Assembly: GCA_040218735.1 (NCBI GenBank)
Contig: JAVJQW010000042.1
Location: forward strand, 96,001-160,000
DNA length: 64,000 bases
Direction: 5' to 3'
Source of the DNA: Deltaproteobacteria bacterium
Lineage (GTDB): Bacteria > Myxococcota > Kuafuiibacteriia > Kuafuiibacteriales > Kuafuiibacteriaceae
The notes below the pieces were generated by a model. It saw only the letters and a list, made by a program, of their open reading frames with translations. It was not told the origin of the DNA and did no database searches. Position numbers and translations under genes: made by a program. This document shows, piece by piece, positions 39,992 to 49,736 of this stretch (the stretch's first letter is position 1; each line of letters begins with the position of its first letter).

Positions 39992-42900
39992 TCAGGTCGA
40001 AGCGCTCGGCTGCTCCGTACCGCTCTGAGCGCGCACCTTCGCGAGCTCCTCCACGAGCACGTCGACGGTGTGTTTCAGCTGTTCCTCGGAGTGGAGCGCG
40101 CTGATGAAGAAGCGCAAGCGGGCGGCGTCGTCTTCGACGGCCGGGTACACGATCGGCTGCACGTTGATGCGCCGTTCCTTGAGCGCCTGGCTCACCTTCA
40201 TGCAGTCCATCGAGTTGCCGATGATCGCGGGGACGACCGCGGCGCCCATCGCGAGGCCCGTGTCGATGCCGCGCGACTTCGCGTAGTCCATGAAGAAACG
40301 CGATCGATCGCGGAGCCGTTCGACGACCTCCGGGTGGCTCTGCATCAGCTCCAACGACTTGAGCGCGGCCGCCGCGTTCGGCGGCGTGATGCCGGCGGAG
40401 TACACGAAGCCCGGCGCGGTGTACTTCAGGTAGCGCACCAGCTTCTCACTCCCGGCGATGTACCCACCGCAGCTCGCGAACGACTTCGACAGCGTGCCCA
40501 TCCACAGGTCGATGTCGCGCGGGTCGACGTCGTCGAAGTGGTGCGCGATGCCGCGGCCGGCGTGGCCGAGGACGCCGATGGAGTGCGCTTCGTCCACGAG
40601 CAGGAGCGTCTTGTAGCGCTTCTTGATCTCGACGATGCGGGGGAGGTTGCAGATGTCCCCATCCATTGAGTAGATCCCCTCCGCGCAGATCAACACGCGG
40701 CGGTAGTTCTTTCGAACCTGCGCGAGCGTGCGGTCGAGCGCGTCGAGGTCACCGTGCTGATACGGCCGGCGCGTCGCGCCCGACAGATAGATCCCCTGGA
40801 GGATGCTGTCGTGGATCAGCGAGTCGTGGACGATGAGGTCGTTGCGATCGAACAGGTGGCCGATCGTCGTGACGTTCGTGGCGTGACCGCTGACGTAGAC
40901 GATCGAGTCGTCGACGCCGACGTGCTCGGCGATCTTCGTCTCGAGGTCGCGGTGCAGCGGGCGTTCACCGGAGGCCACGCGGCTCGCGGACACCGACGTG
41001 CCGTACCGTTCGATCGCCTCCTGCGCGGCGGCGACGACCTCCGGGTGCCCGGAGAAGCCGAGGTAGTTGTAGCTCGAGTAGTTGAGCATCTCGACGCCGT
41101 CGATGACGCTCGTGTCCTTCGCGGTGCCGGCGTGCATCGCGAAGTACGGGTTGTCGAGCCCGATGAGGCGCGCCATCTCGAAGCGCTGCTCGAGGAGCTC
41201 GACCTCCGGGAAGGCGCCGATGTCCCACGCTTCGCGCGCGACGTCATCGACCACCGTGCCGTTGCTCGGCTTGGCCTCCAGCTCCGCGAAGCGTCCGCGG
41301 ATGCCGTCGATCCAGCCGAAGAGCTGGCCCGTCGCCGAGGTGTACACGATGCGCCCGGCGAAGGTGTCGTCGCCGATGGCGTCGAGCTCGACGGTGCAGT
41401 GCACCGGCTGGTCGCCGAACGGGCGCACGAGGACGAAGCGATCGAACCCGGTGGGGAAGCCGGCGCGGCCGTGGTGAGCGAAGAGCCAGAACCCGGCGAG
41501 CTGGAAGCTACCGTCGACCACCAGCGGGTCGAGGGTCCAGCTCGTGCGCTCGGTGCCGAGGATCCAGTCGCCGATCTTCGAGGTGCGTACGACGCCCTTG
41601 ATGCCGAGGTTCGTCATGCGCTCGATCGACTCGATGCCGCGGAGCATCGGGCCGTGGAACGTCTGGTTCTCGTAGAAGGCGTCGAGCGAGGTCTCGGGCG
41701 TTTCGATGGTGCCGGAGAGTGTGATGAGCTGCGGCGGATCCTGGAGGCGCTCCGTCGCGACCTTCGCCCGGTACGCGGTCGAGCCGTCGACGGAGAGCTC
41801 TACCGTGGCCTGCTCGGTCTCGTTCGAGCGGCGGCCGCGCAAGTCGGCTTGCACGGTGTCGTCGCCGAAGACGCCGCGGACCAGGTCGAGGTCGGTCACG
41901 ACCATCGCGCCGGACGTGCTCGCGGCCTCCGAGAACGTCCACGCGACGAGGTCCGCCGCCGAGGCGAGCGGGACGACGGGGCGGCCGTTGAGCTTGTGGT
42001 CGAGGAGGTAGGGGTGCGTCGTCGTCGAGAACGCGACCGCCGAGCGTGCGGCGGTGTCGCGCACCGGGAGGTCGCGGCCCACGAGGAGGAGCCCGGCGGC
42101 GCCTTCGACGAATGCACGCTCGAGACGCTCGACGCCCTCGTCGTCGTCGAGGAACGTCACGCCCTGCGTGGCCATCGCGCGACGGATGGTCTCGGGGATG
42201 CTCGCGACCATCGACGTCGAGCTCCACGGCGGCCACGCCACGGAGAGGACCCGGGTCGCGCCGACGCCGGCAACCGCGATGCGATCGAGGAGCTCGTTCG
42301 CGGCGGCGTAGTCGGACTGCCCGGCGTTGCCGAAGTGGCCGGCCCAGGACGAGAACAGGACGAGGTCGCGGAGCGTCGGGAAGGTCTGCAAGATGGCTTG
42401 CATCCCCTTCACCTTGGCGTTCATCACGCGCTCGACGCTCGCGAGTGACTTCTTGGTCGCGGGCGCGTCGTCGATCACGCCGGCTGCGTGGAACGCGACG
42501 GTGACCGGTCCGAACTTCTCGAGGTGCGGCTTCGTCGCGGTGCGGAGGGCCTCCGTGGAGGCGGCGTCCGCGGAGACGTAGACGGCGTTGTCCCCCAGCT
42601 CGGTGAGGAGCTTGGTGATGCGCTCGTCCTGTTGGCGGCGGCCGACGAGCATCACGGCCTTCGGCTTCTGCGCCGCCACCCATCGTGCGACGACGCTGCC
42701 GATCTCACCCGCGCCGCCGGTGATGACGACGACGTCATCCTTGTCGATGCGGCGCTTCGCGGGCTGTCCGACGGGCGCCGGCACGAGCTCTGCGACGAAC
42801 CGGTCGCCGTCGAAGCCGACGGCGACGGTGCGGTCCGCGCCGAGCAGCTCATCGCTGACCCAGCCGGCGATCTGCGCGGCGGGGAGGCTGTCGTCGACGT

Positions 42901-47924: not shown

Positions 47925-49736
47925 CTATCTGCTTTCGGCGCGACGCACGACGTCCACGAGCTTCTTCGCGGGGCGCGCCGTCTTCTTGATGTTGTGAGTG
48001 AACCGCGCGAACGCGGAGCGCGTGAGGTGACGCGCGAGTGCGACCCGCGTGGCCGTCGAACCCATCAGGCGGTTCTCCAGACCCAGCGTGCCTTCTTCGA
48101 ACAGTTGCTTCGTCTTGCGGCGCTGCAGCTTGCCGCTCGACGTCTTCGGCAGACCGCCCGGGCCCACCAACATGATCTCGCGAGGACGGATGCCGAACGC
48201 GTCATGGACGCGCCGCTGCACCGCGCTCTGCAGGAGGTCCTTCTCCTCGACCTTGGTCTCCGCGACGATTACCAGCTCCTCGGAGGAGGCGCCGGGCGTC
48301 GAGAACGCGACGACGTTCCCCTTGCGGATGCCTTCGATCTGCTCGACCTCCCACTCGATCGACTGCGGGTAGTAGTTGCGGCCGTTGAGGATCACGAGGT
48401 CCTTCTGGCGCCCCGAGATGTACAGCGTGCCGTCCTTCTTGAACCCGAGGTCGCCGGTGTGGAGCCAGCCGCCCGCGAGGAGCGCCTTCGTGGCGTCATC
48501 GTTTTCGAAGTAACCCTTCGTGACGCTGGGACCGCGGAACACGATCTCGCCGACCTGACCGTCGGCGACGATCTCGCCGTGTTCGTTCATGATCGCGACG
48601 TCGTGCTGCGGGAAGGTCGCGCCGCAGCCGACCAGCTCGATGCCCTGGTCGGACGCTTCGGCGACCTTGTCACCCTCGTAGCGGTCGCGGTCGATCGTCA
48701 GCGTCGTCATCGGCCGGTCGAGCCGGTCGAAGGCCATCGCGAGCGTCGCCTCGGCCATGCCGTAGCAGGGCATCAGCGCGTTCGGCGAGAAGCCGGCCGC
48801 CGCGAACGTCTCGACGAACGCGCGCATCGTCGTCGGGTTGATCGGCTCGGCGCCGCACCCGAGGACACGCAGGCAGGAGAGGTCCAGCTGCGCGAGGCGC
48901 TTCTCGTTCGCGCGCTTCGTCGCGAGGCCGAACGCGAAGTTCGGCGCGAAGGTGATCGTGCCGCGGTAGTCGTTCACGACGTCGAGCCAGATGTGCGGCC
49001 GCTTCACGAACGAGAGCGTCGGGATGAACACCACCGGGACGTGCGCCACGAGCGGTGAGATCACGAAGCCGATGAGGCCCATGTCGTGATAGAGCGGCAG
49101 CCAGCTGACGCCGCGGTCCGTCTCGGGATCGCAGTCGAGGCCGTCGTACATGATCGCGTTAGCGTTCGCGATCAGGTTCTCGTGCGTGACGATGACGCCC
49201 TTCGGGTCCGACGTGGAGCCGGACGTGAACTGCAGGAAGCAGGGATCGCTGGGCTCGATCACGATGTCGTCGATCGTCGTGGTGATCGCGGCGTCGTCGT
49301 GATCGCGGACCTTCTCGGTCAGCACGATCTCTCGAAGCGAATCGACGCGCGACAGGAGCGACCAGAGGATCGGCGAGACCTGCTTCGTGGTGAGCAGCAT
49401 CTTCGCGGACGCGGTGCCGAGGATGCGCGCGGCCGTGTCGATGTAACTGTCGAGCTTGCCGAGCGCGAGCGGCGGGTACATCGGGACGGGCACGATGCCG
49501 GCGCGGACGGCGCCGAAGAACGACAGCACGAAGTCCTCGCCGTCCGGGACGATCATCGCGAGGCGATCGCCCTTCTCGAGACCGAGCGAGCGGAAGTAAC
49601 GCGCGCGGCGATCCGCTTCCGCGGATATGTTCGCGAACGACCATTCGCGGGGCTCGAGGCGGTCGTCCAAGAACGTGTAGCCCTTGTGATCGACGACGCC
49701 GGCAGCGGCGAGGCCCTCGACGAGCGTTTTGGCCAT
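47925..49736 (-). CDS. Fatty acyl-AMP ligase (FAAL)
   Basis: Start MAKTL at 49736 after AAGGAG; LQFTSGSTSDPKG, SWLPLYHDMGLIG, CYGMAEATL, LHTGDLG, GRNYYPQ and PKTSSGKLQR. Confidence 0.9.
   Translation of the reverse strand: MAKTLVEGLAAAGVVDHKGYTFLDDRLEPREWSFANISAEADRRARYFRSLGLEKGDRLAMIVPDGEDFVLSFFGAVRAGIVPVPMYPPLALGKLDSYIDTAARILGTASAKMLLTTKQVSPILWSLLSRVDSLREIVLTEKVRDHDDAAITTTIDDIVIEPSDPCFLQFTSGSTSDPKGVIVTHENLIANANAIMYDGLDCDPETDRGVSWLPLYHDMGLIGFVISPLVAHVPVVFIPTLSFVKRPHIWLDVVNDYRGTITFAPNFAFGLATKRANEKRLAQLDLSCLRVLGCGAEPINPTTMRAFVETFAAAGFSPNALMPCYGMAEATLAMAFDRLDRPMTTLTIDRDRYEGDKVAEASDQGIELVGCGATFPQHDVAIMNEHGEIVADGQVGEIVFRGPSVTKGYFENDDATKALLAGGWLHTGDLGFKKDGTLYISGRQKDLVILNGRNYYPQSIEWEVEQIEGIRKGNVVAFSTPGASSEELVIVAETKVEEKDLLQSAVQRRVHDAFGIRPREIMLVGPGGLPKTSSGKLQRRKTKQLFEEGTLGLENRLMGSTATRVALARHLTRSAFARFTHNIKKTARPAKKLVDVVRRAESR

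Follow-up and report, generated by a model that had tools for sequence, protein, structure and literature searches.

A polyketide synthase operon with a terminal alpha-oxoamine synthase as a possible substitute for serine palmitoyltransferase in a family of Myxococcota

In a stretch of 64,000 nucleotides from a contig of a Deltaproteobacteria bacterium of the phylum Myxococcota (the 64-kb window), we analyzed an operon that occupies positions 39992-49736 of the minus strand and encodes, head to tail, a fatty acyl-AMP ligase (FAAL)-like enzyme, an acyl carrier protein (ACP), a diiron desaturase and a polyketide synthase (PKS) that ends in an alpha-oxoamine synthase (AOS) domain. Our reading is that the operon specifies a fatty-acid-primed, probably single-cycle PKS terminated by a sphingolipid-type condensing enzyme, and that this enzyme stands in for serine palmitoyltransferase (SPT); we give this reading a probability of about one half. 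The four genes would then probably build a sphingosine-like base from a fatty acid.

The FAAL-like ligase gene (47925-49736, minus strand) encodes 603 aa from the ATG at 49736, within an open reading frame (ORF) of 47925-49871 that stays open to a GTG at 49871. It is followed on the same strand by the gene of a stand-alone ACP of 79 aa (47676-47915; PF00550, 42.8 bits), by that of a soluble diiron acyl-ACP desaturase-like protein of 268 aa (46853-47659) and by the PKS-AOS gene (39992-46813), whose 2273-aa product was assigned its domains from Pfam, NCBIfam and motifs. The intergenic gaps calculated from the coordinates are 9, 16 and 39 nt, so that the description of four co-oriented genes with gaps of 9-39 nt, given in an earlier note on this DNA, was confirmed by the ORFs, the coordinates and Pfam. 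The G+C content at third codon positions (GC3) is 0.91-0.93 for each of the four genes, as is usual for genuine genes in DNA of 68% GC. A terminator consensus scan found no minus-strand terminator between the four genes, in a setting where the promoter and terminator scans performed at chance level. At the far end of the operon, the PKS stop codon (39992-39994) abuts the stop codon of a convergent ORF of 175 aa without a Pfam family (39464-39991), with no spacer for a terminator.

Along the PKS, Pfam lists a ketosynthase (KS), an acyltransferase (AT), a ketoreductase (KR), a dehydratase of the PS-DH type (DH) and an aminotransferase class I/II domain, the AOS, in this order. The KS (residues 6-411, 45581-46798; PF00109 and PF02801) carries Cys206, His341 and His382, and the AT (residues 575-860, 44234-45091; PF00698) carries GHSLG and HAFH, the latter presumably indicating malonyl specificity. 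An internal ACP (residues 1030-1115, 43469-43726) with Ser1069 in LGFDSLM fell below the listing at E<=0.001 in the whole-protein scan; when these residues were scanned alone, they gave 25.4 bits with PF00550, versus a cut-off of 20.8. The catalytic subdomain of the KR (residues 1362-1531, 42221-42730; PF08659, 2.6e-34) has Tyr1502 in YAAAN and a HAAGVIDD motif, from which we take it to be a B-type KR, and the DH (residues 1588-1841, 41291-42052; PF21089 and PF14765) has His1606 in HxxxGxxxxP together with Asp1767 and Gln1771. The AOS (residues 1908-2253, 40055-41092; PF00155, Aminotran_1_2) closes the protein with His1977, with Asp2074 and His2077 in DEAHS, and with Lys2110 in GTLSKS; all these domains are encoded on the minus strand. 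Each motif that had been named before (the intact KS Cys/His/His, GHSLG and HAFH, LGFDSLM, DEAHS and GTLSKS) was found in the translation. Moreover, across 17 aligned homologues of 43-79% identity, the catalytic residues of the KS, KR and AOS are invariant, as are GHSLG and HAFH of the AT, the DH residues His1606, Asp1767 and Gln1771 and the DSL motif of the ACP with its serine.

The enoylreductase (ER) and thioesterase (TE) families are both absent from the Pfam listing of the 2273-aa protein, as the earlier note had said of this PKS. A homologue search with residues 1560-2273 returned 1614 proteins in the same length class, and among the matches listed, PF00155 is combined with PKS families in 120 of 120 homologues and the ER family occurs in none of these 120. 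The named homologues among the matches listed come from Myxococcota or 'Deltaproteobacteria' metagenome-assembled genomes and are labelled merely 'aminotransferase' or 'AONS'. As the KR and DH are present and the ER is absent, one cycle of extension would leave a 2-enoyl thioester on the carrier.

The FAAL-like ligase has a Pfam AMP-binding domain (1e-66) and a DIP2-like C-terminal domain, and its best NCBIfam family is the fatty acyl-AMP ligase NF006624 (527.9 bits, E 2.6e-158, under the cut-off of 600), the match beginning at residue 4 of the 603-aa form. The desaturase passes PF03405 with 71 bits versus a cut-off of 22.7, and among solved structures plant acyl-ACP desaturases come closest (2uw1, 45.7 bits), with the ligand stretches EExxH, QE and DExxH aligned. 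It shares this family and the diiron ligand motifs with the plant delta4, delta6 and delta9 acyl-ACP desaturases and with mycobacterial DesA2; however, at 268 aa it is shorter than the known soluble enzymes and remote from them (45.7 bits to 2uw1 and 24 bits to DesA2), and unlike them it is dedicated to a PKS-AOS operon. By its family, the substrate of the desaturase would be an acyl chain bound to an ACP.

When the AOS domain was compared with solved structures, the SPT of Sphingobacterium was the best match (246.7 bits), followed by plant, yeast and human LCB2, with KBL at 213.7 bits. The likeness to the Sphingobacterium multivorum enzyme (3a2b/8guh) includes the conserved His, Asp, His and Lys and a similar pyridoxal phosphate (PLP) motif. 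The motif of the window domain, GTLSKS, is one residue (Leu for Phe) away from G-T-F-S-K-S, which has been named as the PLP motif characteristic of SPT (PMC10196870). A stand-alone SPT of Myxococcota has GTFSKS, the KBL of the window genome STLGKAL and a BioF-like paralogue GTASKAF; because of this last sequence, the S-K part of the motif is a weak discriminator.

We then placed the domain in two quick IQ-TREE trees of 63 and 49 AOS sequences. It falls in a clade of 48 of the 63 sequences (SH-like approximate likelihood ratio, SH-aLRT, 99) and of 40 of the 49 (SH-aLRT 100), in which each AOS is part of a PKS protein, follows a FAAL or has a PKS as its partner, and we conclude that the window AOS is a member of a clade of carrier- or PKS-fed enzymes. 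In the tree of 49 sequences, two AOS that accompany RkpA-type PKSs, one in S. meliloti and one on a Pseudomonas plasmid, nest inside this clade. A tblastn search of the plasmid records gave AOS genes 47.7-53.8% identical to the window domain, namely 47.7% for the protein that occupies the RkpG position in S. meliloti and 53.8% for the AOS of the Pseudomonas capsule locus; both genes come after 2500-aa KS-AT-DH-ER-KR-ACP synthases within capsule loci. We take these pairs to be RkpA/RkpG and WcbR/WcbT, the records themselves saying only PKS/SDR and aminotransferase. The resemblance to RkpG and WcbT, which the earlier note had pointed out, is therefore borne out by the identity values and the common clade.

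That relationship raises the question of whether the amino-lipid could anchor or prime a capsule of the Rkp/Wcb type, a polysaccharide containing 3-deoxy-D-manno-octulosonic acid (Kdo), which is the function that has been proposed for RkpA/RkpG and WcbR/WcbT. The AOS similarity and the common clade are what speaks for such a function, but the genomic surroundings do not agree with it: the RkpA/RkpG and WcbR/WcbT pairs lie among KpsF, KdsB and capsule genes, whereas no capsule, Kdo or export genes were found within about 10 kb on either side of the operon in the window, and none is conserved beside it in 20 Myxococcota loci or in 10 loci of the window's own family. In addition, the capsule loci have a separate, fully reducing PKS of the order KS-AT-DH-ER-KR-ACP with a free AOS, whereas the window enzyme is fused and has no ER, and the products described for such a Pseudomonas pair are sphinganines and phosphoglycerol sphingolipids (PMC12134224). 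We regard a capsule function as very improbable.

The gene content of the family bears more directly on the substitution of SPT. SPT was not found in the window genome, which is 96.5% complete and whose other AOS genes are a KBL (632.6 bits with NF005394, cut-off 460), a BioF-like gene and two PRK07505-like genes. As a query we used a canonical SPT from another Myxococcota family, which scores 405 bits to 3a2b/8guh versus 307 to the next chain. Of 20 genomes searched in the window's family, 19 gave the AOS domain of the PKS as its top match, at 36-40% identity, and in the 20 genomes no other match exceeded 40% identity or 250 bits. (The genome tallies take in one unpublished genome, G195, on which no claim depends.) In five complete genomes of the SPT-bearing family, a GNAT-family gene lies directly after SPT in 5/5, followed by an epimerase-family short-chain dehydrogenase/reductase (SDR) gene in 3/5. 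In each of the five, this GNAT is the nearest relative of the GNAT of the window genome. The window genome keeps the same SDR-GNAT pair on contig C42, where the two genes are adjacent and unlinked to the operon; they form a tightly spaced run (G000:C42:109816-113619, L090:8817-12619) of an SDR of 341 aa, a GNAT of 434 aa and a NUDIX/metallo-beta-lactamase fusion of 487 aa. The C42-type GNAT is single-copy in 20/20 family genomes, and among the 20 wider loci that were clustered, a paralogous GNAT lies divergently beside the FAAL gene in at least 6, which are Archangium-like. NCBIfam has no model that names the C42 GNAT or SDR, and the Atlas yielded generic 'GNAT family' clusters.

In bacterial ceramide synthesis, the steps after Spt have been ascribed to the acyltransferase bCerS and to CerR, a reductase similar to NDUFA9 (bioRxiv 10.1101/2023.11.08.566215). 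NCBIfam has no models for these two proteins. Judged by synteny, the C42 GNAT and SDR are candidates for a pair of the bCerS/CerR type. Because the 20 genomes searched yielded no closer stand-alone SPT, yet the GNAT is kept in 20/20 and the adjoining SDR in the window genome, the megasynthase is probably the replacement of SPT. Most simply, the family keeps the later ceramide steps and the megasynthase serves as the SPT, for which it appears to stand in within this family. The sphingoid product proposed in the earlier note gained support from this pattern of absent and retained genes.

The operon itself was then followed across genomes. In the window's family, the DH-AOS part was matched at E<=3e-187 in 18 of 19 other genomes, mostly in frames of about 2300-2550 aa, and at the ten family loci examined a FAAL homologue lies upstream of the PKS in 10/10 and an ACP homologue between the two in 9/10. 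Eighty related loci from species genomes were also compared by tblastn. The KR-DH-AOS form accounts for 21 of them, all of Myxococcota type, with a same-strand FAAL upstream in 16 of the 21 (three of the five others are cut by contig ends) and an ACP homologue between FAAL and PKS in 13. The assembly-line logic assumed before is thus seen to recur well beyond the window, whereas the desaturase, which had been counted as part of the set, is found at 1/21 of these wider loci and in 9/20 family genomes, the window's included, as a single copy with 71-92% identity. In 9/9 of these genomes, the coordinates put the desaturase at the start of the PKS gene, with the DH-AOS match about 5-6 kb downstream of it, and it is placed directly against the KS in all five desaturase-bearing family genomes that were fetched; this constant position ties it to the pathway. 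A methyltransferase of the CMAS family behaves similarly, being inserted between FAAL and ACP in 3/10 family loci and placed after the PKS in at least 10 of 20 wider Myxococcota loci; the clustering of these 20 loci gives lower bounds, the GC3-based ORF filter having yielded almost no ORFs for two of them (L008 and L019). The core operon is therefore FAAL-ACP-PKS/AOS, conserved in Myxococcota, with the desaturase and CMAS as plug-in tailoring genes.

Shorter or longer forms are present in Planctomycetota, Actinomycetota, Bacillota and Cyanobacteriota. At 31 of the 80 loci, mostly from Planctomycetota, FAAL(-ACP) is immediately followed by a stand-alone AOS sharing 55-60% identity with the window domain. 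A KS-AT-AOS arrangement that lacks KR and DH was seen at 16 actinobacterial loci, one of which was confirmed as KS-AT-ACP-AOS. As the architectures range from FAAL(-ACP)-AOS through KS-AT-AOS to the KR-DH form, this type of AOS would seem to accept whatever its carrier presents.

The genes and their domains, the intact motifs, the conservation of the operon, the place of the AOS in the tree and the distribution of genes among genomes are observations. The route built on them is inferred, which applies to its fatty-acid substrate, cycle number and stereochemistry as well as to the amino acid, the later reactions and the lipid finally formed, and it runs as follows. The FAAL-like enzyme would adenylate a long-chain fatty acid and load it onto the 79-aa ACP, where the diiron desaturase, in the part of the family that has it, would optionally add a double bond to the bound chain. 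The KS would then receive the chain and the AT would put malonyl on the internal ACP, such that a single Claisen extension followed by the KR and DH reactions would give a trans-2-enoyl thioester. As the enzyme has neither ER nor TE, its C-terminal AOS would free the chain, condensing it in a PLP-dependent, decarboxylative reaction with an amino acid that is most likely L-serine, and the product would be a 2-amino-3-keto-4-ene long-chain base of the 3-ketosphingosine type. Finally, the unlinked C42 GNAT/SDR pair would N-acylate and reduce the base to a ceramide-like lipid. Serine use, a single extension cycle and a 4-ene product would all fit the evidence.

Several observations weigh against this reading, and most of them concern the AOS. 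The domain is under the cut-offs of the SPT equivalog models NF047600 (SPT-CFB, 319.1 versus 640), NF047599 (245.1 versus 500) and NF047603 (184.5 versus 670), and it scores about as well with the BioF model TIGR00858 (334.7, also under its cut-off of 426.45); with the KBL model NF005394 it reaches 302.2 versus 460. In both trees it lies outside the stand-alone SPT clade. The phylogeny that had been suggested as a check on the assignment upheld the grouping with the RkpG-position AOS but differed between the two trees on SPT: in the tree of 49 sequences, the stand-alone SPT of Myxococcota forms the sister clade of the window clade with a moderate SH-aLRT of 82 and long outgroup branches, and in the tree of 63 the window clade, SPT, KBL and BioF form a polytomy. 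Furthermore, actinobacterial KS-AT-ACP-AOS proteins share the window clade, in a well-supported subclade, and we take their architecture to resemble that of RedL, a glycine user; as the clade also holds these RedL-like proteins, membership in it does not fix the amino acid. Two further points lie outside the AOS: no reductase or acyltransferase is encoded in the four-gene operon itself, and what ties the GNAT and SDR to ceramide synthesis is synteny.

The points on the AOS would equally suit the same assembly line working with glycine, alanine or another amino acid, which would yield a 1-deoxy- or nor-sphingoid aminolipid, or a RedL-like cyclizing amino-ketone, and not a precursor of membrane sphingolipids. 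Products of the first kind have a precedent in the 1-deoxyceramides reported from the environment (10.1101/2024.01.25.577268). Nevertheless, SPTs are the best solved relatives of the domain, its PLP motif is near the SPT-type GTFSKS, the family keeps the SPT-linked GNAT and has no other SPT, and PfSgaB, an AOS that is likewise the partner of a PKS, is reported to prefer serine strongly (PMC12134224). In view of this, we consider the use of an amino acid other than serine unlikely.

The number of cycles was weighed in the same manner. The KS-AT-ACP-KR-DH order is that of iterative enzymes of the PfaA and PKSE type, and the top NCBIfam matches of the KS-AT part (residues 6-928) are PKS_plus_SDR (781.7 bits) and PfaA TIGR02813 (574.5 bits), which together leave room for multiple, polyene-forming cycles; the PKS would then run several KS/KR/DH rounds after priming, and the AOS would free a conjugated polyenyl amino-ketone. 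Both scores are, however, far under their cut-offs (1740 and 1010.1), the TIGR02813 match covers KS-AT only, and the protein has a single ACP and no phosphopantetheinyl transferase domain, the domain order being all that it shares with the PfaA/PKSE group. The FAAL-ACP pair and the long-chain enzymes of the operon, desaturase and CMAS, favor a long fatty-acyl starter for which one extension suffices, and the 31 loci with the sister architecture have no PKS at all. An iterative synthase is, in our judgement, quite improbable, and we retain the single-cycle route to a sphingosine-like base.

A broader form of this reading would have SPT replaced across the whole family by a fatty-acid-primed PKS-SPT megasynthase that writes the trans-4 double bond at the condensation, giving ceramides of the sphingosine and not the sphinganine type with no delta4-desaturase. 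Before the chain is extended, the desaturase and CMAS would introduce a second double bond, a cyclopropane ring or a methyl branch. We put it forward tentatively, as a possibility with the odds against it.

The polyketide route to sphingoid bases has a recent precedent. In Pseudomonas fluorescens MYb115, the PKS PfSgaA and the AOS PfSgaB make sphinganines, and PfSgaB was described as a serine-specific or serine-preferring SPT in vitro (Peters et al., Nat Commun 2025, PMC12134224). As in the proposed window pathway, a type I PKS there passes an acyl thioester to an AOS, and sphingoid bases are formed without a canonical stand-alone SPT (PMC12134224); the window AOS clusters with the Pseudomonas and Sinorhizobium PKS-partner AOS of PfSgaAB-like gene arrangement, and PfSgaB itself probably belongs to the same clade. 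The systems differ in that PfSgaA and PfSgaB are described as two proteins yielding saturated sphinganines (PMC12134224), whereas the window has one fused protein without an ER; the comparable Pseudomonas and Sinorhizobium PKSs are KS-AT-DH-ER-KR-ACP, whereas the window enzyme is KS-AT-ACP-KR-DH-AOS with a FAAL-ACP pair and optional desaturase or CMAS. The novelty is accordingly lower than the earlier note had assumed, the synthesis of bacterial sphingolipids by a PKS and an AOS having been published in 2025 (PMC12134224). We did not find the fused KS-AT-ACP-KR-DH-AOS genes of Myxococcota described in the open-access papers and preprints searched, and they may be among the 6101 clusters in Supplementary Data 4 of that article (PMC12134224). 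The fused form would be a variant, as yet predicted from genes, of this polyketide route, for which the first demonstration in bacterial sphingolipid synthesis dates from 2025 (PMC12134224).

A second precedent is the AasR-AcpR-Spt system of Caulobacter and other Rhodobacteria, in which the condensing enzyme is supplied by an acyl-activating enzyme and an ACP, both dedicated to it (Padilla-Gomez et al., 2022, PMC9386255). The activating enzyme and ACP are encoded beside the condensing enzyme, as in the window, and the same logic is seen in the 31 FAAL-ACP-AOS loci; unlike the direct condensation of acyl-ACP described for that system (PMC9386255), the window operon inserts an intact KS-AT-ACP-KR-DH between the loading ACP and the AOS, and therefore the chain would be lengthened and left unsaturated before condensation. 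Compared with the stand-alone Myxococcota SPT, which is a free enzyme, the window AOS is a PKS domain of 36-40% identity in a separate clade. Enzymes like RedL, which itself uses glycine and leads to a pyrrole product, and the actinobacterial KS-AT-ACP-AOS proteins, whose AOS is in the window clade, share with it the fusion of a PKS module to a C-terminal, chain-releasing AOS. Unlike the window PKS, they have no KR or DH, so they would present a beta-ketoacyl chain.

A tie to the type III PKS FtpA of M. xanthus, cited in the earlier note as being fed by a FAAL-ACP-desaturase set, could not be demonstrated. Five complete genomes of a large Myxococcota family (f9) were examined: in four of them a desaturase homologue is absent at E<=1e-5, and in the fifth such a homologue is divergent from, and adjoins, a FAAL-ACP pair, with no Pfam family in the 312-aa ORF just beyond the ACP, where the scan on that side ended. 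A type III PKS would be expected to give a Pfam match.

Two genes on the plus strand are transcribed divergently from the FAAL gene, one for an NAD(P)H ketoreductase of the ApbA/PanE family (50323-51453; TIGR00745, 155.7 bits versus a cut-off of 141) and one for an endonuclease/exonuclease/phosphatase-family (EEP) protein (51389-52396; PF03372, 3.1e-16), which overlaps the 3' end of the former. The reductase is present in 11/20 family genomes; it adjoins the FAAL gene in the window and in six fetched loci, and the coordinates place it near the operon in three more. An EEP homologue lies beside the operon in 4/10 family loci, and a fifth locus shows a partial match at its edge. In several genera of the family, the place beside the FAAL gene is occupied by both genes or by the reductase without the other, and a role in the lipid pathway is possible. 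By family, the ApbA-like protein is a candidate 3-keto reductase that could equally be a housekeeping panE product, as it passes the panE subfamily cut-off, and we leave it as a lead. A sphingomyelinase-like function was considered for the EEP protein; the evidence being Pfam family membership and partial synteny, we make no claim for it.

The CMAS homologue of the window genome is unlinked to the operon (contig C58, 64% identity; L089:9058-9990) and adjoins a LysR regulator. About 2.5 kb from it, L089:12505-15210 encodes a 901-aa protein in which another CMAS domain is joined to a flavin amine-oxidase domain, a set that presumably recalls the two-enzyme formation of methyl branches on unsaturated acyl chains; an ORF near these genes bears SpvB and TcdB-mid domains.

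Among the related loci, two from small-genome relatives in the phylum Myxococcota (1-2.5 Mb), L098 (G144:C10) and L110 (G054:C2), each have the AOS in one uninterrupted frame (992-1089 aa). In L098 the FAAL match shares its reading frame in this ORF with the AOS match, so that this locus at least looks like a one-protein FAAL-(ACP)-AOS; in L110 the two matches lie in different frames. Actinobacterial loci (L023-L040 and L130) encode a KS-AT-ACP-AOS protein of 1500-1600 aa without KR or DH, and in L130 (8335-13158 of a Streptomyces anthocyanicus record) this gene adjoins that of an MMPL transporter. On the plus strand of L109 (G090:C2:50000-58000), two AOS matches in tandem come after a KS match. 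Their identities to the window domain are 38% and 47%, and they share a frame within an open frame of 1801 aa; the KS match is in another frame.

Elsewhere in the window, the minus strand of 31006-36148 carries a co-oriented run encoding an asparagine synthase (658 aa), a 209-aa ORF without a Pfam family, an AMP-binding enzyme (492 aa) and an acyl-CoA dehydrogenase (382 aa), which may be a separate small acyl-modifying cluster. AT skew reaches -0.313 in the bin 54001-56000 and GC dips to 0.59 in the bin 18001-20000. The tRNA and Rfam scans gave no match anywhere in the 64 kb.

In eukaryotes, the 4,5-double bond of sphingosine arises by oxidative desaturation of dihydroceramide. If the proposed route is true, the megasynthase would represent a second and mechanistically distinct origin of this bond, in which polyketide logic sets it before condensation, and SPT, a core enzyme of membrane-lipid synthesis, would be swappable for a megasynthase across a whole bacterial family. 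Assignment of the product would annotate many genomes, given the 1614 proteins in the length class, and would aid environmental surveys of sphingolipids. The graded series of FAAL-ACP-AOS, KS-AT-ACP-AOS, KS-AT-ACP-KR-DH-AOS and KS-AT-DH-ER-KR-ACP with a separate AOS would also offer a natural set for the making of designer long-chain bases.

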